Source: a virus
UHGV virus genome: UHGV-0046228
Length of the DNA stretch: 11,963 bases
Reading direction: 5' to 3' (one strand)
In this document: positions 1 to 10,131 of the stretch, one piece after another
Position numbering within the stretch: position 1 is the stretch's first letter
How the letters are laid out: every line of letters begins with the position of its first letter
Notes under the pieces: generated by a model
Database searches by the model: none
What the model saw: only the letters and a program-made list of their open reading frames with translations
What the model was told of the DNA's origin: nothing
Translations under genes and position numbers: made by a program

Positions 1-385
1 CCGGAACAGCACCGGGGTTCGGCGTCTTCAGCGTGGTCGAGCTGGCAAAAGCACCGGAGCCAACGTTATAGGTGAAGGAGTAAAGCGCGGCGCGGGTTGG
101 CTCAGGGATGCGAACCTTGATCAGCGGGTCGATGGCGCTTGCCACCTTTCGCAGATCTGCCTTAAGCAGGTTGTCACACTCTTTGTCGGTATATCGGTGA
201 CCGCGGCGAATGTCGGTACCAGTGTGCCCATCGCAAACGGTCCAGACGCCGACCACATCCTGATAGGCGTAATAACGCCGACCTTCGAGTCCATCCGCAT
301 TGCCCAGCATTACTGCAGCAATGGTGATGGCTCCGGACCCGCCAACGATGGCACCCACCAGCTTATTCCTCAACGTTGGGTTCAT
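1..385 (-). CDS. SAR endolysin (signal-anchor-release lysozyme, phage 21 R-like), N-terminal 128 codons; C-terminus lies beyond the window start
   Basis: Manual reverse-complement translation from ATG at 385..383: [128 protein letters not shown]. Gly/Ala-rich weakly hydrophobic N-terminal SAR-like segment followed by a lysozyme-like E...D/C...T core; start overlaps the upstream holin by 23 nt in another frame. Absent from the ORF track because no stop lies inside the window. Confidence 0.85.
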
Positions 386-587
386 CTCGGCTCCTGCTGC
401 GGCGGTTGTCTTCGCGGATTTTGAAATAGAGATTTGTCAGATACGTCATTACGGCAATGATGATACCCACCAGCACGCCGATAGCGTTCCACTGCTCGGG
501 GCTGTAGGCATTAAGCATGCCGTTTAGGATGCTCCCGGCTGAAGCGCCATAGGCAGCACCAGTGGTTAGTTTGTCCATGCGATACAT
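363..587 (-). CDS. Class II holin (pinholin, phage 21 S-like) with dual-start motif
   Basis: 74-aa [22 protein letters not shown]...[15 protein letters not shown]; begins Met-Tyr-Arg-Met (two starts separated by a basic residue), two hydrophobic segments, charged C-terminal tail; SD GAGGTGA upstream; immediately precedes the SAR endolysin. Confidence 0.85.
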
Positions 588-621
588 ACTCTCACCTCGC
601 TTTGTGCGAGTGCTGTTGCTA

Positions 622-650
622 GGAATAAAAAAGGCCGCCGAACGGCAGCC
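622..650 (-). terminator. Intrinsic terminator-like hairpin about 35 nt upstream of the holin start
   Basis: Minus-strand reading GGCTGCC-GTTC-GGCGGCC followed by TTTTTTATT; 7-bp GC-rich stem with one G-U pair. Confidence 0.5.
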
Positions 651-848
651 TTGTATTGATTGATAGTTTCCGGAGCTTCTTTCTCGCTAGGAAAGCAAAA
701 AATTAAACAATCCTTAAGAATAGCCAGTTGATGCAAAAAATAATTAGCTTTTCAAATAGTTTTTAGCTGTTACCATTTCCACTAAGTTATGGCTTTACCT
801 CTTTGTGGATAAAAGAAAGACAAGCGGGTATGAGATTGAGTCGTTATT

Positions 849-883
849 GCGGAGAGGGGTGATGTCGTTCTCCGCGTTTTTTT
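849..883 (+). terminator. Plus-strand intrinsic terminator-like hairpin within the Q-to-holin intergenic region
   Basis: GCGGAGA (849-855), 13-nt loop, TCTCCGC (869-875), then G plus seven T (877-883). On the minus strand no U-run follows, so it is orientation-specific for plus-strand transcription. Confidence 0.45.
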
Positions 884-910
884 GGCTCGAAGCGATTTAG
901 GCCACAAAGA

Positions 911-942
911 AATAAAAAAAGCCCAAGGCGTTAACCTCGGGC
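911..942 (-). terminator. tR'-like intrinsic terminator downstream of the late promoter
   Basis: Minus-strand reading GCCCGAGG-loop-CCTTGGGC (8-bp stem with one G-U pair) followed by TTTTTTTATTTCTTT; about 120 nt downstream of the Q stop. Confidence 0.6.
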
Positions 943-959
943 TTGAATTTTTTTGGCTT

Positions 960-1065
960 CGGAACGACTGAACGGATTCCCAGCGTTAGAGATGAATCTA
1001 TCCAGTTTTTCCGCGAAATGCAATACCTATTTCCTATATATTTTCAACATTAGGGAAAATTATTT
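960..1065 (-). promoter_or_regulatory. Inferred late promoter (pR'-like) and Q-utilisation region
   Basis: AT-rich non-coding stretch between the Q stop (1066-1068) and the tR'-like terminator; minus strand has TTGAAA (1047..1042) and adjacent TATATA (1040..1035), but no clean -35/17 bp/-10 pair was found. Placement rests on position. Confidence 0.35.
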
Positions 1066-1875
1066 TCATCTCGTTACTTTTGAGAGAATGGAATCAGCCA
1101 TAGACTCCTGTTTATGGCATTCGGCGACCAACTCCTCAAATAGCGGCTGAAGTTGCTCATATGCCGCCGTTTTCTTTATCTCCGCAACAGTATTAACGCC
1201 CTCAATTACCGTTGAGAACTTAAGCCTGGCGTAACCTCTACCACCGCAGCGGTCGCAGGCTTTCATTACTGGAACGCCCTGGCGATCGCTTTCTGCCTTG
1301 TCCAGCACCTTACCTTTGCCATGGCAGCGACACGAATTGCTGATAACGCCTTTTCCGTTACACGGCTTGCACTTAACTCGCACCACCTCACGCGCCTGTG
1401 TCCAGCTCTCCCAGTCGCTTGGGCGAACGGCACGCGACATTTTCGACCAGTAAGGCGGTTTCCCCCATGGGTATGAGACCTTGTTGGTAAACACTTGCGC
1501 CTCTGTAAATCCGCCACCATCACAGCAATCACATTTTCGAGTGCTGGCAGCACTTCTTGAATAATCCTGGTATGCAAAAGCGCAGAGAACCTTAAGCACG
1601 CCTGACCGAGCTGATTCATCGAGTTCAGACAGTGCTCTGAATTTACCTGATAACTTACGTGCCTGCTCATAGAGTCTCTCCAGTGCTATATCTGGGCTGC
1701 TAATGCCGATTTTCGAGAGGTAAAGATCGAAACCAAACCCGCACTTGTGGCCAGCAAGGCCAAGCGCCGCCATAACGTCAGTGCCGGTGAGACTGTCTGA
1801 TGCGGTTGCGCGAGGAGAGTCACTGAACATCGGTGATTTAGGCGCAAAGTATTTAGCGATTGATTCGAGGTTCAT
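1066..1875 (-). CDS. Late-gene antiterminator Q-like protein
   Basis: 269-aa ORF directly upstream of the late promoter/terminator and lysis genes and downstream of nin genes; C-terminal half carries paired Cys motifs (KCKPCNGKG...CRCHGKG, CDRCGGRG) typical of Zn-binding Q-family antiterminators. Family assignment is from recall. Confidence 0.7.
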   Translation of the reverse strand: MNLESIAKYFAPKSPMFSDSPRATASDSLTGTDVMAALGLAGHKCGFGFDLYLSKIGISSPDIALERLYEQARKLSGKFRALSELDESARSGVLKVLCAFAYQDYSRSAASTRKCDCCDGGGFTEAQVFTNKVSYPWGKPPYWSKMSRAVRPSDWESWTQAREVVRVKCKPCNGKGVISNSCRCHGKGKVLDKAESDRQGVPVMKACDRCGGRGYARLKFSTVIEGVNTVAEIKKTAAYEQLQPLFEELVAECHKQESMADSILSKVTR

Positions 1876-1991
1876 TATGCGGCTTCCTTCTGTGGCTGGT
1901 GGGTTTTGGTCTGGCTGTGCTTTACTATTGGCGGCATGCTGGCGCGCTTAACGCTTTCGGCCTGGTATCGGGTTATCTCGTCTCTGGTCAT
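1875..1991 (-). CDS. Small hypothetical protein (38 aa), translationally coupled between lar and Q
   Basis: Manual translation MTRDEITRYQAESVKRASMPPIVKHSQTKTHQPQKEAA; ATG at 1991..1989 preceded by GGAGG with a 6-nt spacer; ATGA overlap with the Lar stop and TAATG overlap with the Q start. Not in the ORF track (below size cutoff). Confidence 0.4.
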   Translation of the reverse strand: MTRDEITRYQAESVKRASMPPIVKHSQTKTHQPQKEAA

Positions 1992-2194
1992 GATGGCCTC
2001 CGATTCCAGGCGCGAATTGCATCGCGCTTTGTTGGATAGGTGTCAGTTATCGGCTTAATCAAGCATTGCTTTGTTGAACAACCGGCGTAGACACCATCAC
2101 CATCAGAAAAAAGTTCTGCGCCGCCGCCACAGAACGGACACTCAAGCAGAAAAGCCCAATGAGGTAGCTTGAGATCGAATATCATTGGTTTCAT
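1988..2194 (-). CDS. Lar-family restriction alleviation protein (anti-restriction)
   Basis: 68-aa ORF with CPFCGG...AGCSTKQC zinc-ribbon-like cysteine pairs and C-terminal AIRAWNRR, matching my recollection of Lar/RalR-family proteins of Rac-type prophages; ATGA overlap with the ninG stop. Confidence 0.55.
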   Translation of the reverse strand: MKPMIFDLKLPHWAFLLECPFCGGGAELFSDGDGVYAGCSTKQCLIKPITDTYPTKRDAIRAWNRRPS

Positions 2195-2832
2195 GCTGCC
2201 TCCCGCTGTTTCAGTGCTTTGAGCTTGTCGCGGTACTCATCCCGGATCCGGATGAAGTCTTCACGGCGGTAGTTGGTCATTTCGTGGGGGCCGTTGAGCC
2301 AGTCGACGTATCCCTGACCGTAACGAGCGACCAACCCAGCTTCGTATTGCTGCGCCACGGTCGCCTCTTTGGCGGTGTACTTGCCAGCTCCGGCATTACA
2401 GGATTTGCACTGCTTATGGGCGTTGCGTTCTTCAAAGCGCAGTTCAGGGTAAGCACCTACTGTCTTGAAATGGCCGCAATCCCACTGGCCACCATGCAGA
2501 TCAGGCGGATTGGTCTCGCCGCAGCTGATGCATGGCAAATCGGCGTCGCGCGCACGGATAAAGGCGTTGAAAGCTTTCTGAGCCTGAGCCTTGTAGTGTC
2601 CGTCTGGCCTGAGCTCGTCCAGCCGCTCCGTGCGGCGTTTGCGCCCGTCCTTCTCAGCCTCGTTTTGCTCCTTGATGCGCTTAGCCGCGTCTTTCACCTT
2701 CTCCTTCTTGCGTTCTTCCATTGCGAGGATTGCGCCGTGTTCCGGGCAGCACCAGCGGATCCGGATGTCGTGGAATTTCGGCACGAAGTATTCACCGCAT
2801 ACTTTGCACTTACGGCGGGATGGTTTACGCAT
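2191..2832 (-). CDS. ninG: NinG (Rap) recombination-associated protein
   Basis: Translation from the internal Met ([16 protein letters not shown]...) parallels lambda NinG as I recall it ([17 protein letters not shown], ERNxHKQC motifs). The track start at 2910 would overlap the upstream phosphatase by 85 nt, so ATG 2832..2830 is preferred. Confidence 0.85.
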
Positions 2833-3493
2833 GGGCACCACCTTGAACCTGTACCAGCGTGAGGCTTCCGCAGAACACGGCCCCCGTATCCATGTACATC
2901 TGGTTGGCATACTTCAGGGGCTGGCGCGCAGGGGTGTGGCCGAAGATAAACAGATCAGCACCAGCTATCGGCGAGACAATGCCGTCCTGAGCGTCGCTAA
3001 CCCGTTCACGATTCCAGATGACCATGTCTTTCGGGACCGGCTTGTCGAACGCATATTCGTTATGCGGGTAGTCAGCGTGGCAGATAACGATTTTACGTTC
3101 AGCGGTAACCAGCTCGATGACGAATGGCAGGCTGGCCGATTTATGAACCAGAGCCTTAGCCAGCACCTCTTTGTCATAGTCGAGATTGAAGAACCAACCG
3201 CCACCGTTTACCAGCCAGTGATTGACGTTCCCATACTCCGATAGCCCATCAATCATCATCTGCTCATGGTTTCCGCGCACCGCCCGGAACCACGGCATAG
3301 TAATAAGCTCCAGGCACTCGACGTTTTCCGCGCCGCGGTCAACAAGGTCACCAACCGATATCAGCAAATCATGCGCCGGGTCGAACGAAACTTTTTCGAG
3401 CTCATTCATCAGCAGCGTGTAGCACCCATGCAGATCGCCGACGACGAAGATATTGCGCCAGTCAGCGCCATTAATGCGTTGATACATGCTCAT
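2825..3493 (-). CDS. Serine/threonine protein phosphatase (lambda PPase / NinI-like metallophosphatase)
   Basis: Metallophosphatase motifs GDLHG, GDLVDRG, GNHE and strong co-linearity with lambda PPase ([35 protein letters not shown]). Start taken at ATG 3493..3491 (MSMYQRING...) with AGGAG 9 nt upstream; ATGA overlap with the ninE stop. Confidence 0.9.
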
Positions 3494-3660
3494 GCGGATT
3501 TTCTCCTCGCTGCGAGACGCAGCCATTTCTGATCCACCAGGCGGGCGGTGTAATCTTTCAGGGTCGGAATGTCGGACGGCTTAATCGCTGGCTTACGCTT
3601 GCGGCGCACCGGAACGCGGAAGATTTCGTTTGTGATGACGCGAGCGAGAGGGCTAGCCAT
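3490..3660 (-). CDS. ninE: NinE-like small basic protein (56 aa)
   Basis: Manual translation [56 protein letters not shown]; resembles my recollection of NinE of lambda/DLP12 (RKRKP...WLR...ARR); TAATG overlap with the ninB stop. Not in the ORF track. Confidence 0.6.
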
Positions 3661-4097
3661 TACGCAACCCTCCCGAAGTAATCACCTGAGTAGCGAACTT
3701 CACGGAGTTGCACGCCGTTTTGCACAGCAAATGCCTGGCTGTATTCGATGAGACTGGTCATGCGACGGATGCCCATCTTCGCAGTGCTTTCCCGGATGGC
3801 GCAGAACTCCCCTTCCAGACCCGGCACCACTTCACCAGGCTTACCGGTGGCAATGGCATGGCCTGAGACATACAGGACTTTCCATGAAGCGAGGTCGCGC
3901 GACTTGCCAGCCCATTGCAATTGCTTCGCTGTATCGCCACAGAGAGCGTGGAAGAGGTCGTTTTGGGCGAGAGTGCGGTCAGCCTCAGAAAACTTCACCA
4001 CGAGCGGCAGAGCGTCGTTAACGGGCAGCTTCCTGATGTAGTCGATGAGGTTATCGCGAACGCGTTCGTCGCGGAGGTAGAAAACAGGCTGTTTCAT
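3660..4097 (-). CDS. ninB: NinB (Orf) recombination mediator
   Basis: Translation from internal Met (MKQPVFYLRDE...) is 145 aa and co-linear with lambda NinB as recalled (QN..L...GD......W.G, SWK core); GGAGGTGG SD 6 nt upstream of ATG 4097..4095. Confidence 0.85.
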   Translation of the reverse strand: MKQPVFYLRDERVRDNLIDYIRKLPVNDALPLVVKFSEADRTLAQNDLFHALCGDTAKQLQWAGKSRDLASWKVLYVSGHAIATGKPGEVVPGLEGEFCAIRESTAKMGIRRMTSLIEYSQAFAVQNGVQLREVRYSGDYFGRVA

Positions 4098-4129
4098 ACG
4101 CCACCTCCGAGAGGTAACGCAGAATACAG

Positions 4130-4243
4130 AAAATCGCAGGTGCATTTCTGCATCTGTGACAAGGTGAGAAGTTCATATTGTGGTCGCATTTAAGTCCCCT
4201 TAAATGCGAAGAAGTCTGCCAGGGTTGTTCAGGCCGCTGGCAG
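4130..4243 (-). other. Structured RNA element: three consecutive hairpins ending in a U-rich tract (tR2-like terminator, leader or small RNA)
   Basis: Minus strand: TCTGCCAG-14 nt loop-CTGGCAGA; CGCATTTAAG-GGGA-CTTAAATGCG (10-bp perfect stem); CAGATGCA-GAAA-TGCACCTG (GNRA-type loop) followed by CGATTTTCTGTATTCTG. Confidence 0.35.
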
Positions 4244-4247
4244 ATTT

Positions 4248-4276
4248 ATTATGGCTCGTTGATAGTGTTTTATCAA
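4248..4276 (-). promoter_or_regulatory. Candidate sigma70 promoter upstream of the hairpin element and ninB
   Basis: Minus strand TTGATA (4276..4271), 17-nt spacer AAACACTATCAACGAGC, CATAAT (4253..4248). Confidence 0.45.
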
Positions 4277-4317
4277 ACGTTGCTTGACGTTTAGTTATGC
4301 GTCGAATGGGTTCTGCA

Positions 4318-5070
4318 TCACTTCACCTTCCACTGCGGTGCTGCTGCAATCATCGCGCGGTATGCAGCCTGCATGTCGTTGTCATCATCGTCTGTGTACG
4401 GAGCCGAATCCCATGCTGCACGCATATCCGGAGTAAGCTCAACCGGCACCATCACCCAACCATCAGGAATCACCGGAGAGTTGCCACCCTGAACAGTAGG
4501 CATATCCGGACCTTTGCGAATCGCCCTGGCAAGATCGATTTGGTCGTCGTACAACCAGTCACCTGTTTGCGGATGATTGGCTTCTGCCAATTGTGCAGCC
4601 CACTCCAGGCCGTCTTTGTGTCCTTGCAGATAGTCCAGCGGTAACTCATCACTATTACTTACAGGTTCGGCCTGAAGCATGGCGGCGCGATAGGCGTTCC
4701 AGCCGACAGCTTTTCCGTGTTCAAACGCGCTGTCAAAGTCATCATCAATTTCCATCGCAGCGGGCACAGATACCGGCGCTGGCGGGGCGGTGTAGAGCGG
4801 CATTACCTCAATATTGAAGATATCCCCCTCGCTTGGACACGCCTCTGCGCTACCGTAAACCCAAGGGTGAACGACTCCGTTACGCTTGTTGATTAATCTG
4901 TGCGCCCACGCCACAGGCTCCGCTTCGAGCGATGCCAGCGCGATACGCGCATTATTAATCAGGAGGCTATCAGCAGGAGATAAAACAACATGAGCGTTAC
5001 CCTCCGCATCAATTTCAGAATTCGTAATTTTTCTGAACAGCTTTGCCAGTTCTCTGGTAATAGTGCTCAT
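4318..5070 (-). CDS. Hypothetical phage protein (250 aa), acidic
   Basis: Long ORF with ATG at 5070..5068, GGAG 8 nt upstream, ATGA overlap with the upstream ORF stop; acidic runs (EIDDDFD, YTDDDDNDM); no family recognised. Confidence 0.7.
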   Translation of the reverse strand: MSTITRELAKLFRKITNSEIDAEGNAHVVLSPADSLLINNARIALASLEAEPVAWAHRLINKRNGVVHPWVYGSAEACPSEGDIFNIEVMPLYTAPPAPVSVPAAMEIDDDFDSAFEHGKAVGWNAYRAAMLQAEPVSNSDELPLDYLQGHKDGLEWAAQLAEANHPQTGDWLYDDQIDLARAIRKGPDMPTVQGGNSPVIPDGWVMVPVELTPDMRAAWDSAPYTDDDDNDMQAAYRAMIAAAPQWKVK

Positions 5071-5345
5071 GGGCGAATCTCCGTCCTGCCACCAAGTAAG
5101 CGGATTGCCACTCGTTCCCGGAAGGTAAGCGGTCGATGGTGTCCGCGGGCATTAACAATTTCAGGCTTTCCATTAGGCGGATAATTGACCCTGACCGATT
5201 GACCATCTAGCGCGTGAGAAGCCTCGAGTAGTGCTGACTTTAAGTGCGCAGGGCACTCTTTCTGCACCCGCTCGCCGTCTGAAATGACACCTGCAATCCC
5301 CTGAAGCATGCTGGCTAAATTGCTGAGATAATTTTTCACATTCAC
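5067..5345 (-). CDS. Hypothetical protein (about 90 aa); start uncertain
   Basis: ORF-track start at 5345 is a GTG only 1 nt after AAGGAG; GTG at 5339..5337 has better spacing (7 nt). Stop overlaps the start of the 250-aa ORF (ATGA). Confidence 0.5.
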   Translation of the reverse strand: MNVKNYLSNLASMLQGIAGVISDGERVQKECPAHLKSALLEASHALDGQSVRVNYPPNGKPEIVNARGHHRPLTFRERVAIRLLGGRTEIRP

Positions 5346-5692
5346 TCTCCTTTACCGGTGCCATAGGCAGATAAGCACTCTTCAAATCCAGCCTGATTAT
5401 CCGTTTGACCTAAACTGAAGCCATGCTGAAGACCATGACGAAATGCGCTATCTTGCAATTTATCTGCGCTATCGAGCTTCGCTTCCAGTTCAGCAATCCG
5501 CTCCTCATACCGAGCGCCAACGGAAACGGCTTTATGGAAGGCTTCGCACCATTTGGACGATTGCGCCTGCATCTTCTCCAGCTCATCCAGCAGCTCCAGC
5601 ACGTCGCGAGTGGGAACCATGAAGTTCGGAATGAAGTTATCTTTCGCTTTCTCTGCTGTTAGGCGCAGCGCCTGTTTGTCGATGTTGCTCAT
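5342..5692 (-). CDS. Hypothetical protein (116 aa) with central coiled-coil-like segment
   Basis: ATG 5692..5690 overlapping the stop of the upstream ORF (ATGA); charged heptad-like region ERIAELEAKLDSADKLQD; no family recognised. Confidence 0.6.
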   Translation of the reverse strand: MSNIDKQALRLTAEKAKDNFIPNFMVPTRDVLELLDELEKMQAQSSKWCEAFHKAVSVGARYEERIAELEAKLDSADKLQDSAFRHGLQHGFSLGQTDNQAGFEECLSAYGTGKGE

Positions 5693-5949
5693 TGGGCGGC
5701 TCCTTCTGTGCGATACATCATGATTGTCAGATCGCCTTTAGTCGCCAGGCGCACCGTTGTTCCTGGTTCGATGCTGGACAGGTCAAACGCATCGTAAAAT
5801 TCGTTTACTGCCTTCTGTCTACGAGATAGCTTTCTACGCTTATCCCACTGCTTTAGCGCAATGGAGATAAACCACTGGCCCGTTTTGAACATGATGAATA
5901 ACCACCCCATCAGAGCGAGACCAGTGTTTAGAATGTCCAGAATGCTCAT
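5689..5949 (-). CDS. Hypothetical small membrane protein (86 aa)
   Basis: ATG 5949..5947 with AAGGAG 7 nt upstream; N-terminal hydrophobic span LALMGWLFIMF followed by a basic stretch. Confidence 0.6.
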   Translation of the reverse strand: MSILDILNTGLALMGWLFIMFKTGQWFISIALKQWDKRRKLSRRQKAVNEFYDAFDLSSIEPGTTVRLATKGDLTIMMYRTEGAAQ

Positions 5950-6041
5950 GACTGCACTCCTTTGCGAAGCTGTGCGGCGATGTCTTCGAGTACTCCATCA
6001 GCGAAGGAGCGATCAAAATCCCCCTCTGGCGCATCAGCCAT
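5946..6041 (-). CDS. Small acidic hypothetical protein (31 aa), translationally coupled
   Basis: Manual translation MADAPEGDFDRSFADGVLEDIAAQLRKGVQS; stop TGA overlaps the ATG of the 86-aa ORF (TCATGA); no obvious SD, so it rests on coupling only. Confidence 0.3.
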   Translation of the reverse strand: MADAPEGDFDRSFADGVLEDIAAQLRKGVQS

Positions 6042-6044
6042 AAA

Positions 6045-6569
6045 CTATGTAGATGTGAGAATCATCCGTGCGATGTCTGCCGAGATCTTCGCAGTATCAT
6101 CAATAAAACCAGCTTCCCAGGCAGCCAGCATTCTGTTAGACACAAAGTAAGCGCCCTCCTTGCGTGCTTCAGTCTTCACTTCAGCCAAGAAAGCGTCGGT
6201 GGCTGTGGTTCGCGGCATCCTTCCATCTATTGCGCAGATATACGCATCAGATAGTTCACCCTGCTCGCCGTCAAACACGTAGCAACTCTGTACGATAAAT
6301 TTATTCAGCCCCGCATTCTCCGCCGCCAGCTCCCTGCACTTGCTCTCGGCGTTAGCGAGCTGTACTGCCATGTCTGTGACTTCGGCTTCAAGTTTTTCAG
6401 CATATTCAATCAGGAGATCGATTCTTTCCGGCGTTACGGTTTTAACGTATTTGCAAATCGATGACGCATAATTATCATCCTGGAGTGTGCCAGCCAGGCC
6501 ATTACAAAATTTGCGGTTCCCTTTTGTCGCCTTGATATCGGCGATGATTTTTTTAACATCTGGTTTCAT
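6045..6569 (-). CDS. Hypothetical phage protein (174 aa) with coiled-coil-like centre
   Basis: Preferred start ATG 6569..6567 (MKPDVKKIIADIK...) making an ATGA overlap with the ren stop; the track's longer N-terminus would overlap ren. Confidence 0.6.
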   Translation of the reverse strand: MKPDVKKIIADIKATKGNRKFCNGLAGTLQDDNYASSICKYVKTVTPERIDLLIEYAEKLEAEVTDMAVQLANAESKCRELAAENAGLNKFIVQSCYVFDGEQGELSDAYICAIDGRMPRTTATDAFLAEVKTEARKEGAYFVSNRMLAAWEAGFIDDTAKISADIARMILTST

Positions 6570-6865
6570 GCTGACACCCTCCCGTAAAACGCCAGTACAC
6601 GCTGCATCGCCGGACTGTTTCGGCACTCCTGAAATATTCCGTTGGTGCAGCTACGCGCGGTACCAGCCTGCTCTTCCGGCGTAGCCAGGCGATAAGTCAC
6701 CGTTCGCCAGACCTTGCTCACCCGGATAATTTTTCGAGACTTTTCCAGATCGATAGCGTTCTTCGTGATGCAGTTGATGGTCATGCCGCACTCTGTGGCC
6801 ACATCCTTCGCGGTGAAGGTCCGGTGCGTTTCGAGATAACGCAGAATTGCCTGCTTGCCTTTCAT
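6566..6865 (-). CDS. ren: Ren-like protein (lambda Ren, resistance to Rex exclusion)
   Basis: 99-aa translation MKGKQAILRYLETHRTFTAKDVA...KVWRTVTYRLATPEE...FQECRNSPAMQRVLAFYG is co-linear with lambda Ren as recalled; ATGA overlap with the P stop; sits directly after P as in lambda. Confidence 0.8.
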   Translation of the reverse strand: MKGKQAILRYLETHRTFTAKDVATECGMTINCITKNAIDLEKSRKIIRVSKVWRTVTYRLATPEEQAGTARSCTNGIFQECRNSPAMQRVLAFYGRVSA

Positions 6866-7656
6866 TGAATAAGCCCTCTCTCTTTCCCGCGCTGATACTC
6901 TTCCCAAAGCCATTGGGCCGGGGTGAGAGCGCCGAGAGTCGCCGCATTTGGCATGCACCCGAAGCTTTTTCCTTCCGGGTGATAACCGGCCTGACGGCTC
7001 ACGTGATTTGTCGGGATCACTTCATCAGAATTCTCGAGCGCCAGGACGGGGGATGGTATTTTTTCCCCACCAGCAACTTTCAGCGCCCATTCCTCAAGTT
7101 TTTTTGACGCGTATTTTTCAGTTTCAGCCTCGCTCAGCTGGCGCTGGTACATCGCTCTGCGCGTATCGGTCACAATCCAGTACATGACGTCATGAGACCA
7201 CGGGAAAGCTTCTGCTCCGCCGGTATGCAGCCCTTTTTCGCGGCTATACCGATGGAACTCATTCATCACATCAGCCAGGCCAATGCCAAGTACCGTGCCG
7301 CTATCCTTGCACCATTTGATGAATTGCCCCGGAGAAGGCCAGAAGGGTGATTCACTGGCGCGGGCATGCCGTACACCTGCGGAAAGTTGTTCGCGGGTGC
7401 GGATCCCATTCTCTGAAAACGCTGCGATCCACTGACGCTTTGCCGTTTTCTCGTCTGCGTCAGTTTTCAGGTTTGTCTGCGTAGACGCAGGGAAAATCTG
7501 CTTCAGCTGCCGAAAGAGAGAATCAACGAGGCTTTCCGCTTCGGGATTTATTACCTTCTGCTGGTCGGCGTTTCCGTTAGCCATTCTGGATAGCAGTGCC
7601 CCGTCACGCCCGTTAACTGCCTGCACAAGTTGGTTATTCACAGGAAGTCCTCCCAT
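6862..7656 (-). CDS. P: Replication protein P (DnaB helicase loader)
   Basis: 264 aa, co-linear with lambda P as recalled (FPAS, RRQWIAAFSENGIRTREQ, PFWPSPGQFIKWC, YWIVT); start overlaps the 3' end of the O-like gene. Confidence 0.9.
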   Translation of the reverse strand: MGGLPVNNQLVQAVNGRDGALLSRMANGNADQQKVINPEAESLVDSLFRQLKQIFPASTQTNLKTDADEKTAKRQWIAAFSENGIRTREQLSAGVRHARASESPFWPSPGQFIKWCKDSGTVLGIGLADVMNEFHRYSREKGLHTGGAEAFPWSHDVMYWIVTDTRRAMYQRQLSEAETEKYASKKLEEWALKVAGGEKIPSPVLALENSDEVIPTNHVSRQAGYHPEGKSFGCMPNAATLGALTPAQWLWEEYQRGKERGLIQ

Positions 7657-8372
7657 CCCTCGCGGCTGTTCCAGTGAGGCGTTTCCTGCTCAGCACGTCC
7701 ACGTTTAGCCAGCGGGTTAACCCTGGCATTCCGGATCCAGACTCTGAAAGCCGAATTCCAGTCGATTAGCTGCGTGCCACGGGAAAGGTGATAGTCCCGG
7801 AAGTTCAGCAGCTCAGTTTCAATGCTCACCCCCTTCTCGGCAGCCATAGCAATGTGATCTGCCGACGGCTTAAACAGGGGCGGGAATGGAATCTCCCCGT
7901 TTGGTGAAATCCCGATCCGCCGCTTAGCGGCTTCGCTCATAAAACCATCGCGCCCAGAGAGAGAGTTAGGTTCAGTGACTGGTTCAAAAGAGTGACTGGT
8001 TCTGGTGCCATCTGGTGGCACAGGGGGTGTGCAATCAGATGGCATAGGGTGTGCTTCTTCGTGGCATACCCCTGTGCAATTTAATGGCATAGGGGTGGCA
8101 TCTAATTTCAGGTAATACACATTTGACGTGTTACCTTTTCCGTTGTTGACGCCAACACGGTTCTCACGCCTGATAAGCCCCATTTCTTCAAGCGCATCAA
8201 TATGGTTACGAACAGCCGTTCTGCTGCATTCGCATTGGTCGGCGATATGTTGATACGAAGGCCAGCATTCGCCTTTATCGTTGGCGTTATCGGCCAACTT
8301 AATCAGGACGAGCTTACGCAGTGAGTTTCCCACTTTGACCCCCATTGCTTTCGCCATAAGTGACATGCTCAC
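7638..8372 (-). CDS. Replication initiator, O-like (N-terminal winged-HTH, ori iterons in the coding sequence, C-terminal P-interaction-like domain)
   Basis: 244-aa ORF; N-terminal HTH-like segment (SRTAVRNHIDALEEMGLIRRE); iteron repeats fall in a Pro/Thr-rich linker; followed by P. GTG at 8372 with GGAGGT 5 nt upstream, alternative ATG at 8366. Confidence 0.8.
   Translation of the reverse strand: MSMSLMAKAMGVKVGNSLRKLVLIKLADNANDKGECWPSYQHIADQCECSRTAVRNHIDALEEMGLIRRENRVGVNNGKGNTSNVYYLKLDATPMPLNCTGVCHEEAHPMPSDCTPPVPPDGTRTSHSFEPVTEPNSLSGRDGFMSEAAKRRIGISPNGEIPFPPLFKPSADHIAMAAEKGVSIETELLNFRDYHLSRGTQLIDWNSAFRVWIRNARVNPLAKRGRAEQETPHWNSREGWEDFL
8003..8100. repeat. Origin-of-replication iterons inside the O-like gene
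   Basis: Four related units spaced about 22 bp: TGGCACAGGGGGTGTGC, TGGCATAGGGTGTGC, TGGCATACCCCTGTGC, TGGCATAGGGGTGGCA, preceded by inverted repeat GTGCCA...TGGCAC and flanked by an AT-rich tract (8101-8130). Confidence 0.6.
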
Positions 8373-8389
8373 GTGCTACCTCCGGTTTG

Positions 8390-8418
8390 TTTACTCTCTT
8401 CGATTTACTTGGCATAAT
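8390..8418 (+). promoter_or_regulatory. Candidate promoter for an OOP-like antisense RNA
   Basis: Plus strand TTTACT (8390-8395), 17-nt spacer, CATAAT (8413-8418), in the intergenic region between the YdaT-like gene and the O-like gene, pointing opposite to them. Confidence 0.3.
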
Positions 8419-8423
8419 TGCCT

Positions 8424-8500
8424 CGCAATTGACTGACGTTTATTGCACCAGAAAGCTGTTGGTGTTCGAGCACCACAGCTTTCGCCATTTCTGTTGTTCT
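8424..8500 (+). ncRNA. Candidate OOP-like short antisense RNA (about 70 nt)
   Basis: Predicted start about 7 nt after CATAAT; ends at a 13-bp hairpin (GAAAGCTGTTGGTG / CACCACAGCTTTC, 8451-8483, one bulged T, 6-nt loop) followed by T-rich GCCATTTCTGTTGTTCTC, abutting the YdaT-like stop. Confidence 0.3.
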
Positions 8501-9042
8501 CACATAACCCCCAGCATCGATGTCACCATCGTCATCAGCGGCCCTACCTGCTCCGGCATGAGGCGAAACAATGACGCTATGCCCTCGCTTACCTCCTTCA
8601 TTTTCTGGTGCTCAGGCGCGTTCAGGAGAACGGCTTGCTTTGCTTCTGAACATTCCTTCATGGCAGATGCGATCAGCGACATGGTGTCGTTCTGCTGCGC
8701 CAGGCGTGTACGAAACTCAACAGGAAGAACAGACATGATTGCCGGGGTCAGTTCTCTAACGTTCTCGCGGTACTGATCGGAGTCGACGCGGTTATCCAGA
8801 AAGCGCAAAGGATTCTGGCGAGCCCTGCTGATGTCTTGCAGGAAGCTGACGGCGGTACCGCCCTGCTCCCGGTATTCGTTGATGATCAGCGCTGACACTA
8901 CGTCCTGATTGTCCAGGGACGACGACCATGCACGGACCGCATCGCGGATTTTGTCGTGACCTGGCTCCGCCTTAGGTTGAGCGCGGTTTATCATCGCTCC
9001 CGGGTGTATTCCGGTATTGTGTTGATACGCAAGTGAATGCAT
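8500..9042 (-). CDS. YdaT-like protein (Rac-type; occupies the CII position)
   Basis: 180-aa ORF downstream of the cro-like gene; segment IINEYREQGG...ELTPAIMSVLPVEFRTRL parallels E. coli YdaT as recalled; AAGGGA SD 5 nt upstream of ATG 9042..9040. Confidence 0.65.
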   Translation of the reverse strand: MHSLAYQHNTGIHPGAMINRAQPKAEPGHDKIRDAVRAWSSSLDNQDVVSALIINEYREQGGTAVSFLQDISRARQNPLRFLDNRVDSDQYRENVRELTPAIMSVLPVEFRTRLAQQNDTMSLIASAMKECSEAKQAVLLNAPEHQKMKEVSEGIASLFRLMPEQVGPLMTMVTSMLGVM

Positions 9043-9072
9043 TGCTTTCCCTTTCGTGGTTAGAGCCGCCGG

Positions 9073-9294
9073 TTAGGCGGCAAAGATACCTGGATATAGA
9101 ACTTCGCGAGGAAGTCCGGTTACTTCTTCGTATTTACGCATTTTTGTTACTGGAAGGCTGCCACCTCGCTTTTTAAGCATATTGATGGCCTGAGGCGTTA
9201 CGCCGACCTTTTCAGCAAGCACCTTTTGAGAGCCGCCCACTGCATTAATGGCTTTCTCAAGCGGGGTGCTGGCGTTGGATTTTTTGTTGATCAT
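9073..9294 (-). CDS. Cro-like DNA-binding protein (YdaS / Cro-CI HTH family)
   Basis: 73-aa ORF with HTH segment GGSQKVLAEKVGVTPQAINMLKKRG; divergent from the repressor gene; GGAGC SD 5 nt upstream. Confidence 0.8.
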   Translation of the reverse strand: MINKKSNASTPLEKAINAVGGSQKVLAEKVGVTPQAINMLKKRGGSLPVTKMRKYEEVTGLPREVLYPGIFAA

Positions 9295-9314
9295 GTTTTG
9301 CTCCGCTCATGTGT

Positions 9315-9386
9315 AATCAACACCATGTTAATTCATGGCGTGGATTAAATCAACATTATGGTGATGGAAAAAATCCACATGTTGTT
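9315..9386. promoter_or_regulatory. Divergent operator/promoter region (OR-like) between cro-like and cI genes
   Basis: Three related sites: AATCAACAccaTGTTAATT (9315-9333), AATCAACAttaTGGTGAT (9348-9365), AATCCACAtgTTGTTT (9372-9387). Candidate pR on the minus strand: TTGATT (9353..9348), 17 nt, TAACAT (9330..9325), overlapping sites 2 and 1. Confidence 0.5.
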
Positions 9387-9411
9387 TACCATGCATGGAG
9401 CGGAGGGTTTT

Positions 9412-10131
9412 ATGAGCAGCATTTCTGAAAGAATTAAATTTTTACTGGCAAGGGAAGGCTTGAAGCAGCGGGATTTGGCTGAGGCTTTGTCGACTAGCCC
9501 ACAGACCGTCAACAACTGGATAAAAAGAGACGCGTTAAGTCGTGAGGCGGCGCAACAAATATCTGAAAAATTCGGTTATTCTCTTGACTGGTTATTAAAT
9601 GGAGAGGGTTCTCCAAAGAAGGATCTGGAGAGCAACATCCCGCCAGAGTCTGAGTGGGGAACTGTCGACGCTTGGGACAAAAATACCCCCCTACCTGACG
9701 ATGAGGTGGAAGTACCGTTTCTGAAGGATATCGAGTTTGCGTGTGGTGATGGGCGTGTTCATAGCGAAGATCATAACGGCTTTAAACTGAGGTTCTCCAA
9801 GGCAACGCTTCGCCGGGTAGGAGCTAACACAGATGGGTCTGGCGTTCTGTGTTTCCCGGCAACCGGTGACAGCATGGAGCCAATGATTCCAGATGGAACC
9901 ACTGTGGCTGTGGATACAAATAACAAACGCGTTGTCGATGGAAAACTTTACGCTATTGGACAAGGCGATGGTGGTGAAGGGCAACTAAAAAGAATTAAGC
10001 AGCTCTACAGGAAACCAGGCGGAAAGCTAATTATCCGCAGCTACAACAATGAGGCCTACCCTGATGAAGAAGCTGACATTGATGATGTTGAGATAATCGG
10101 CCGCCTCTTCTGGTACTCGGTATTGCTGTAG
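9412..10131 (+). CDS. CI-type prophage repressor (N-terminal HTH, C-terminal S24 LexA-like autopeptidase)
   Basis: Start at ATG 9412 (MSSISERIKF...) with GGAGG 5 nt upstream; HTH LKQRDLAEALSTSPQTVNNWIKR; S24 catalytic motifs GDSMEP (Ser) and LKRIK (Lys). Confidence 0.9.
   Translation: MSSISERIKFLLAREGLKQRDLAEALSTSPQTVNNWIKRDALSREAAQQISEKFGYSLDWLLNGEGSPKKDLESNIPPESEWGTVDAWDKNTPLPDDEVEVPFLKDIEFACGDGRVHSEDHNGFKLRFSKATLRRVGANTDGSGVLCFPATGDSMEPMIPDGTTVAVDTNNKRVVDGKLYAIGQGDGGEGQLKRIKQLYRKPGGKLIIRSYNNEAYPDEEADIDDVEIIGRLFWYSVLL

Follow-up and report, generated by a model that had tools for sequence, protein, structure and literature searches.

The gap between the late antiterminator gene Q and the holin gene of a phi80-like prophage carries a conserved noncoding module of ~280 bp, and within it a candidate small-RNA gene on the strand opposite to the late operon. 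The gap lies in UHGV virus genome UHGV-0046228, of which we analysed a stretch of 11,963 nt (hereafter the window; positions count from its first base on the plus strand, and the late genes are read from the minus strand, here also called the late strand). The gap contains an intrinsic terminator that opposes the direction of late transcription. As judged from the sequence and its homologues, this opposing terminator appears to belong to a conserved and previously unannotated candidate gene for an antisense small RNA. The explanation that we favour, and hold to be somewhat probable, is a self-contained RNA gene of ~100 nt (about 781-883) that runs antisense to the leader of the late operon and whose product has the shape of an Hfq-binding small RNA. 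The positions and parts of all features are listed in Table 1.

The module was delimited by comparing homologues. Window positions 641-888 are 79% identical to the stretch directly before a holin-like gene of Escherichia phage PHB10, and the module as a whole is found at 72-89% identity in about 45 viral contigs in addition to PHB10, in 41 distinct versions. The homologues were gathered by two collection scans using different conserved words, and 36 unique sequences were aligned. Five 18-mer matches of the first scan were discarded as chance hits inside unrelated coding sequence. A further collection scan in which the hairpin was not fixed recovered one additional close member, and a covariance model recovered none in 57 loci without the module. 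In every case a holin gene, of one of two types, follows directly after the module and in the same orientation. Since the sequence upstream differs between groups of homologues, we place the beginning of the module at the A-run and hairpin, which on the plus strand correspond to a hairpin followed by a T-run.

This hairpin folds at about -15 to -18 kcal/mol (-15.4 kcal/mol with its 9+2 bp stem). Its plus-strand reading runs into seven T, while its minus-strand reading continues with AATAACGA and has no T-run, which confirms the plus-strand-specific terminator that a sequence-only reading of this DNA had placed at 849-883. The strand preference is general: a run of five to seven T follows the hairpin in 41 of 41 unique units, against none of 39 when the late strand is read. 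Stem and loop hardly vary among homologues whose identity elsewhere is 72%. Each group also has a late-strand terminator that faces the plus-strand hairpin, and such facing terminators are the layout of convergent transcription units. The terminator pattern scan missed the hairpin because its loop exceeds the 8-nt limit of the scan. In the window, the terminator has a d-score of +11 (a d'Aubenton-Carafa-type score).

A terminator on the plus strand implies a transcript that ends there. The sequence-only reading had accordingly postulated a converging transcript of unknown origin; the transcript is indeed implied, and the homologues now point to its origin in a conserved extended -10 motif 70-72 nt upstream of the hairpin. 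When the 36 aligned homologues were scanned with position weights for sigma-70 promoters, a single conserved promoter-like site emerged on the two strands together, and this site is on the plus strand. The sequence TGTTAYYAT (768-776) is present in 41 of 41 unique units. The TG and the hexamer positions -12 T, -11 A, -8 A and -7 T are invariant, and variation is confined to hexamer positions 3-4, the least critical ones. The distance from the end of the motif to the hairpin is 70-72 nt, again in all 41 units. We also looked for a promoter on the late strand inside the module, which would have made the pre-holin terminator t2 the end of a second small RNA, and found no conserved candidate. Nor does the M3 RNA of phi80 qualify as the converging transcript: this RNA, the homologue of oop, maps to JX871397 36229-36288, and the window contains nothing that matches it.

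Taken together, the predicted promoter and the terminator would delimit an RNA of ~100 nt. The match of the covariance model at 781-883 is by construction. The body of the predicted RNA (781-847) is A/G-rich and shows no conserved structure, and the consensus fold keeps only the terminator hairpin; a purine-rich block, GGATAAAAGAAAGACAAGCGGG, is conserved at 807-828 on the plus strand. The 3' part reads UUAUU, hairpin and U7 in the window, and (A/U)UUAUU(A/C)AU precedes the hairpin in relatives. A U-rich stretch followed by a terminator hairpin and a U-tail is the usual 3' module of Hfq-binding small RNAs, and the predicted RNA has all three parts in this order. Its position is that of a cis-antisense RNA: positions 781-883 of the plus strand lie inside the late leader, between tR' and t2.

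Conservation along the module is uneven. Scored per 10-nt bin, it reaches 0.92-1.0 in the hairpin and 0.90-0.92 in the promoter, and falls to 0.67-0.75 in parts of the body. This pattern bears on the idea that the module is the decaying remnant of a former cargo, without function and conserved merely through recent spread among close prophages. Such an origin would agree with the finding that the known copies all share 72% identity or more, the searches having turned up no distant member, and with the dispensability of the module, which is absent from half of near-identical cassettes. Decay, on the other hand, would not be expected to leave bins at 0.67 beside a hairpin at 1.0 and a promoter at 0.9, or to hold a spacing of 70-72 nt in the face of indels. 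We regard a remnant as quite improbable.

The same observations weigh on a simpler role for the hairpin. It might be a mere insulator that protects pR' and Q from stray leftward transcription of the plus strand that enters across the lysis genes, with leftward genes beyond rha or the host flanks as examples of its source and with no dedicated small RNA involved. The hairpin and its T-run are indeed specific to the plus strand, and no strong leftward terminator turned up in a simple scan of phi80 from gene 63 to the lysis cassette, so that long antisense transcripts are conceivable. An insulator, however, would need no invariant extended -10 motif at a fixed distance of 70-72 nt, the hairpin travels with ~230 bp of conserved noncoding sequence, and about half of near-identical lysis cassettes manage without it. 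We therefore consider this role unlikely.

Several observations weigh against an antisense RNA gene. The -35 element is poor, and a standard promoter scan does not call the site. By our own estimate, the pattern TGnTAnnnT is expected by chance ~0.3 times per 150 AT-rich bases, so that the argument for a promoter is one of invariance and fixed spacing. The fold of the hairpin is unremarkable against shuffled sequences (z = -1.6), its energy alone not being significant, and it is conservation that carries the claim of a plus-strand terminator. The T-run of most relatives has just five or six T and begins one or two non-T bases after the stem, and the d-score drops to about -20 with the T-run 2 nt off, which leaves the strength of the terminator uncertain. 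The stem never varies and so offers no support from covariation. Recent common descent may account for part of the conservation, since no homologue falls below 72% identity. Among the translation-start regions of phi80 no target was found: the best duplex, at -35.9 kcal/mol, is within the range of shuffled RNAs (mean -33.9, standard deviation 2.7), and trans targets at these starts were set aside. Finally, the loop is invariant although termination does not need it to be, which suggests that another constraint acts on the loop. This could be a site of RNA pairing or protein contact, or a function of the late strand or of the DNA; a search for the complement of the loop elsewhere in phi80 returned inexact matches only, with no informative pattern.

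The last point leads to the alternative that the module acts on the late strand or as DNA, either as an element for processing or stability of the late leader or as a protein-binding site (inverted repeat GCGGAGA-N13-TCTCCGC) tuning the expression of the lysis genes, in which case the promoter-like motif would be coincidental. Besides the invariant loop, the constant placement of the module immediately upstream of the holin gene and co-oriented with it speaks for such a role, as do conserved blocks that fall outside the predicted RNA. One of these is CTTAAGGATTGTTTAAT (701-720), which is invariant in the set of homologues ascertained by the hairpin and in a set ascertained by the CTTAAGGATTGTTTAAT motif itself. 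A late-strand role would leave without an obvious purpose the invariant run of five to seven A before the hairpin, which equals a U-tail on the other strand. Moreover, t2 is the only late-strand structure that emerged, and there is no match to a cis-element of Rfam. We judge a late-strand or DNA function to be improbable, and retain the antisense RNA gene as the favoured explanation.

The module is noncoding: its sequence contains several 1-nt indels, one group has stop codons in frame, and the differences within its longest open reading frame are mostly nonsynonymous. The sequence-only reading had found only frames of 12 codons or fewer in the gap. This stands for ATG starts, while GTG and TTG starts give frames of 23-56 codons, none of them conserved as coding. 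A protein-coding cargo or small toxin was rejected because these frames carry indels, stops and mostly nonsynonymous changes across homologues. The one frame that needs separate discussion would encode a tiny peptide, MSFSA(F/L)F..., on the plus strand, a small toxin or leader peptide with its start signals in the hairpin. A GGAG ~7 nt before an ATG (862-864) is invariant in the hairpin, and a plus-strand frame at 805-900 (31 codons from a GTG) is open in several groups. The residues past MSFSA(F/L)F, however, lie outside the module and differ between groups, the codons upstream show mostly nonsynonymous differences, with stops and indels in one group, and the product lacks membrane-spanning length. 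The T-run would end the RNA ahead of the stop codon, and a frame that crosses the U-tract into non-conserved sequence is very unlikely to be real; we give the peptide hardly any weight.

Known noncoding genes were searched for in the same region. ARAGORN detected no tRNA, and an alignment with a tRNA-bearing Klebsiella relative shows no similarity beyond tR', so that a tRNA or tRNA remnant in the gap was rejected. No family of Rfam 15, including STnc100, IsrK, AsxR and AgvB, reached its gathering score on either strand of the window, and a divergent homologue of the module likewise gave no Rfam match at gathering score or with a convincing E-value. The earlier statement that the gap holds neither a tRNA nor a toxin moron is in agreement with the absence of a tRNA and of a conserved frame; its further statement that there is no obvious gene is probably wrong, given the candidate described here.

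To see how often the module occurs, we used a sample of 80 viral contigs that were selected by a holin with 95% identity or more to the second holin type, and regardless of the module. The module is present in 38 of the 80 loci, the remainder having tRNAs or other cargo. The usual order is a Q-like gene, often a cargo gene of 64 codons, a late-strand terminator, the module, holin, endolysin and spanin. Among 5,426 complete Escherichia coli genomes, 62 carry the module, in each case within a phi80-type prophage, and no annotated feature covers it there. Klebsiella phage ST13-OXA48phi12.5 shares Q, pR', tR', holin and lysozyme with the phi80 type, and has tRNA-Asn and tRNA-Ser between tR' and the holin gene. 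What 33 genomes with a phi80-type holin have in common is limited to the ~55 nt that precede the start codon (560-616), in some cases together with t2, and many of these genomes carry tRNAs upstream of the shared holin leader. Comparison with related Q-lysis regions, as proposed in the sequence-only reading, thus recovers the module, with the promoter motif upstream of the hairpin, in relatives at the 72-89% identity given above, and finds tRNAs in its place in Klebsiella relatives. By these comparisons the Q-holin gap is a cargo slot, and the module a discrete, facultative cargo.

Other cargo of the slot was noted in passing. In relatives, one match or two tandem matches to STnc100 (RF02076) above its gathering threshold lie in the stretch from the Q-like gene to the holin gene (loci L163, 480-909; L167, 892-1097; L189, 1085-1287); some of these loci also bear the module, and the leader of the window has no match. 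Six loci without the module (L203, L204, L195, L221, L239 and L241) have a different conserved cassette, CTAACGCGTACGCAAAAACTATCGTAACCTGTTAAGAGTGGTTACTT..., followed by two tandem late-strand terminators. This cassette lies ~100-200 nt upstream of the holin start at 1501 and has no Rfam match at gathering score; it looks like another cargo of the small-RNA type. In many relatives a conserved open reading frame of 63-69 codons (MMREGYYWIQYNGSRQIAYY... / MEEGFYWIQHNG...), absent from the window, is located between the Q-like gene and the module (at context positions 2245-2439 in L011 and L022, and similarly in L005, L009, L074, L150 and L159).

Table 1. Features of the Q-holin gap and its flanking genes, in window positions.
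Feature	Position	Strand	Parts and remarks	Basis
Conserved noncoding module	about 620-898	no strand	~280 bp; cargo slot between tR' and holin	homologue comparison
Predicted extended -10 promoter of the antisense RNA	735-776	plus	A/T tract 735-746; weak -35 TTTTCA 749-754; 16-bp spacer; TG 768-769; -10 TACCAT 771-776	conserved motif in homologues
Predicted antisense small RNA	about 781-883	plus	~100 nt	promoter-hairpin geometry
Intrinsic terminator	848-883	plus	stem 848-856/868-876, inner 2 bp; loop UGAUG; T7 877-883	folding and conservation
Conserved block CTTAAGGATTGTTTAAT	701-720	no strand	sequence as on the late strand; 50-80 bp upstream of the predicted promoter of the antisense RNA	
pR' -35	1023-1018	minus	TTGCAT	annotated in JX871397
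Putative Q-binding element	1016-1010	minus	TCGCGGA; between -35 and -10	annotated in JX871397
pR' -10	1000-995	minus	TAGATT; spacer 17 bp	annotated in JX871397
Predicted pR' leader RNA	912-987	minus	about 75 nt; Q-independent; ends at tR'	pR'/tR' geometry
tR' intrinsic terminator	912-944	minus	11-bp stem 944-919; T-run to about 912	terminator pattern scan
t2 pre-holin intrinsic terminator	625-652	minus	9-bp stem 652-631; T6	terminator pattern scan
Conserved holin leader	588-624	minus	...ACAGCACTCGCACAAAGCGAGGTGAGAGT; holds the ribosome-binding site	sequence comparison
Q late antiterminator gene	1066-1875	minus	phi80 gp17 type; 269 aa	Pfam PF03589 Antiterm, E=1.3e-34; gp17/Q in JX871397
Class II holin gene	363-587	minus	phi80 gp18	Pfam PF04971, E=5.4e-25; annotated in JX871397

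A 541-base query (560-1100) matches phage phi80 (JX871397 / NC_021190) at 99.8% identity. Two E. coli chromosomes match it without a difference (100%), and the phi80 remnant in DH5alpha, DH10B, TOP10, JM83 and other laboratory strains again reaches 99.8%. The gap itself measures 478 bp, and its sole mismatch to phi80 is at position 975. The window as a whole is a phi80-like mosaic: positions 1-3642 correspond to phi80 43011-39370 at 98% identity, and the replication region is a different one. Megablast matches to phi80 are limited to 1-3642, 4121-4809, 4906-4941 and 8498-9956. With 3643-8497 compared to JX871397, the region of the replication genes is replaced, and the window is not phi80 itself. 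Window positions equal those of our JX871397 locus extract minus 941. In DH10B (NC_010473.1), the equivalent of the predicted plus-strand RNA is on the minus strand, from about 1367224 down to 1367122. The G+C content is 37-45% in the gap (588-1065) and 52-59% in the flanks, which together with the Pfam-confirmed Q and holin genes bears out the AT-rich spacer of ~480 bp described in the earlier reading. All features of that reading are present, at or within a few bases of the positions it gave. Lysozyme and spanin genes follow the holin gene in the JX871397 record. The holin starts with MYRM, which may be a dual-start motif as in holin/antiholin pairs.

The late control region is of the ordinary lambdoid Q / pR' / tR' design, with Q upstream, a sigma-70 promoter with an element that Q is predicted to bind, and tR' followed by the lysis genes. 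GenBank JX871397 already carries annotations for pR', its Q-binding element, tR' and t2, and these represent known biology. That record labels window positions 914-942 (tR') and 627-650 (t2) each as a 'putative rightward terminator'. It has no leftward feature in the gap, and its sole non-coding RNA is M3, sited elsewhere. The tR' hairpin has an energy of -17.6 kcal/mol and a d-score of 39. With the start of the leader placed ~7 nt past the pR' -10, the predicted leader (912-987) folds at -26.7 kcal/mol (z = -3.2 against shuffles). Seven Klebsiella phages conserve the pR'-tR' block (909-1032) at 92%. These data uphold the strong tR'-like terminator that had been read at 911-942. The proposed short, Q-antiterminated leader is likewise supported, by the pR' and tR' annotation in JX871397 and by the short pR' RNAs reported for phages 21, phi80, 82 and P22, whose counterpart in Stx phages is the Hfq-binding regulator StxS (PMC7547250). 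Reading by eye places the sequence TAACGCT just downstream of the predicted pR' start, where a sigma-dependent pause element with a -10-like sequence would be expected in a lambdoid late region. An A7 tract is located 3 nt upstream of tR', so that tR' may also act weakly on plus-strand transcripts. A phi80 CI operator in the gap was considered and rejected, the resemblance being limited to a half-site.

The second minus-strand terminator, read earlier at 622-650 just before the holin gene, was recovered by the pattern scan and agrees with the JX871397 annotation. Its fold stands out from shuffles (z = -4.2; d-score 21). The number of terminators returned by the scan, three against 1.9 +/- 1.3 expected in shuffled sequences, is not above chance; the folds of tR' and t2 individually exceed shuffles (z = -3.2 and -4.2), and both terminators are kept in relatives. 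In nearly all of the 80 viral contigs, a late-strand terminator lies 35-40 nt upstream of the holin ribosome-binding site and is followed by ACAGCACCCGCACACAGCGAGGTGAGAG, whatever cargo is found upstream (tRNAs, a methyltransferase-like gene or other cassettes). Because an equivalent terminator is present in nearly all related loci regardless of cargo, t2 appears to be a generic pre-holin insulator and, on this comparison, is not special to the phi80-like phage. It presumably stops polymerases unmodified by Q and is overridden by Q.

Between t2 and the holin start is a conserved leader, common to 26 of the 33 genomes with a phi80-type holin and also to the second holin type. A 5-bp stem, CTCGC/GCGAG, overlaps the holin ribosome-binding site on the minus strand (576-612), and the pairing is lost in relatives, which read CCCGC or CTAGC. 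The module sequence ATCCACAAAGAGGTAAAG at 797-813 on the minus strand resembles the true holin leader GCACAAAGCGAGGTGAGAG at 592-608 on the same strand, and this likeness would allow the predicted antisense RNA of the window to span the holin ribosome-binding site with ~13 base pairs and a 2-nt bulge. We give this complementarity no weight, as it is not kept in other groups. RacR of the Rac prophage was reported to activate transcription of the phi80 lysozyme gene ('lysN') more than 4000-fold, in a study whose probe spanned -235 to +7 of lysN and in which the terminators and pR' were not considered (PMC6715736). The span of this probe corresponds to window positions 385-620, the holin gene and the start of the gap.

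These elements suggest how the region might work. The promoter pR' would fire constitutively, and without Q transcription would end at tR' to give the leader of ~75 nt. With Q bound between -35 and -10, polymerase would read past tR' and t2 into holin, lysozyme and spanin. The plus-strand RNA would start near 781-784 from the extended -10 promoter and end at the hairpin and U7. The two units would then converge on a spacer of 27 bp, insulated from each other by their own terminators, and tR' may back up termination of the plus-strand RNA. In a lysogen, pR' would make the short leader while the module's own promoter makes the discrete plus-strand RNA; transcripts escaping tR' would meet converging polymerases and complementary RNA, and stop finally at t2, leaving holin silent. 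After induction, the abundant Q-dependent late leader would pair with the small RNA and remove it. The main role of the RNA may be this cis-antisense control of the late leader or trans-regulation of other mRNAs. A more specific version, in which the RNA is a lysogeny-specific, Hfq-dependent regulator of host or phage mRNAs and Q-driven late transcription is its off switch through polymerase collision and a leader sponge, is a speculation to which we assign a low probability. If it holds, one short cassette would couple the activity of a regulator to the transition from lysogeny to lysis, and might also set lysis timing.

Since phi80 is a classical phage whose remnant, including the gap region, resides in the cloning strains DH5alpha, DH10B, TOP10 and JM83, these strains would, if the candidate is genuine, express an unannotated prophage small RNA. 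The Q-holin interval would gain an opposite-strand member beside StxS, PasA/PasC and PasD/STnc100, and the view of the slot as a nursery for regulatory RNAs would be strengthened. Related lysis cassettes generally share, as a design feature, a terminator 35-40 nt ahead of the holin ribosome-binding site, which presumably keeps cargo promoters from driving holin expression that would be lethal to lysogens.

The late region resembles that of lambda, with its pR', Q-binding element, tR' and '6S' leader: in both, Q is upstream and a sigma-70 promoter produces a short terminated leader ahead of the lysis cassette. In lambda the holin gene S closely follows tR', whereas the phi80-type region has a leader of only ~75 nt, a second terminator and ~280 bp of extra noncoding cargo between tR' and holin.

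Among small RNAs of the Q-to-lysis interval, close counterparts are StxS and PasD/STnc100, Hfq-binding RNAs that derive from the Q-adjacent late leader in Stx-type and related prophages and are expressed in lysogens (PMC7547250; bioRxiv 10.64898/2026.05.13.724894). The candidate would share their interval, and in relatives STnc100 is found between Q and the module. It differs in that StxS and PasD/STnc100 are by-products of late-strand antitermination, whereas the candidate is on the opposite strand, has a predicted promoter of its own, and gives no Rfam or STnc100 match. PasA and PasC are Hfq-dependent small RNAs adjoining the holin-lysozyme operon in prophages of enteropathogenic and enterohaemorrhagic E. 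coli (EPEC/EHEC), and PasA was reported to be processed from a longer transcript (PMC8550237; bioRxiv 10.64898/2026.05.13.724894). They have in common with the candidate the slot immediately before the holin gene, a size of 80-100 nt and a 3' stem-loop with a U-tract, and show no detectable sequence similarity to the module; the reported processing would place PasA on the late strand, in contrast to the plus-strand candidate.

The arrangement also recalls lambda OOP and its phi80 homologue M3. These RNAs are encoded between cII and the replication genes (JX871397 36229-36288) and overlap the 3' end of a coding sequence, whereas the candidate would lie in the late leader, overlaps no coding sequence and is not similar to them in sequence. 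What the candidate would share with OOP and M3 is the layout of a short RNA with its own promoter and intrinsic terminator, convergent with and opposite to a long phage transcript.

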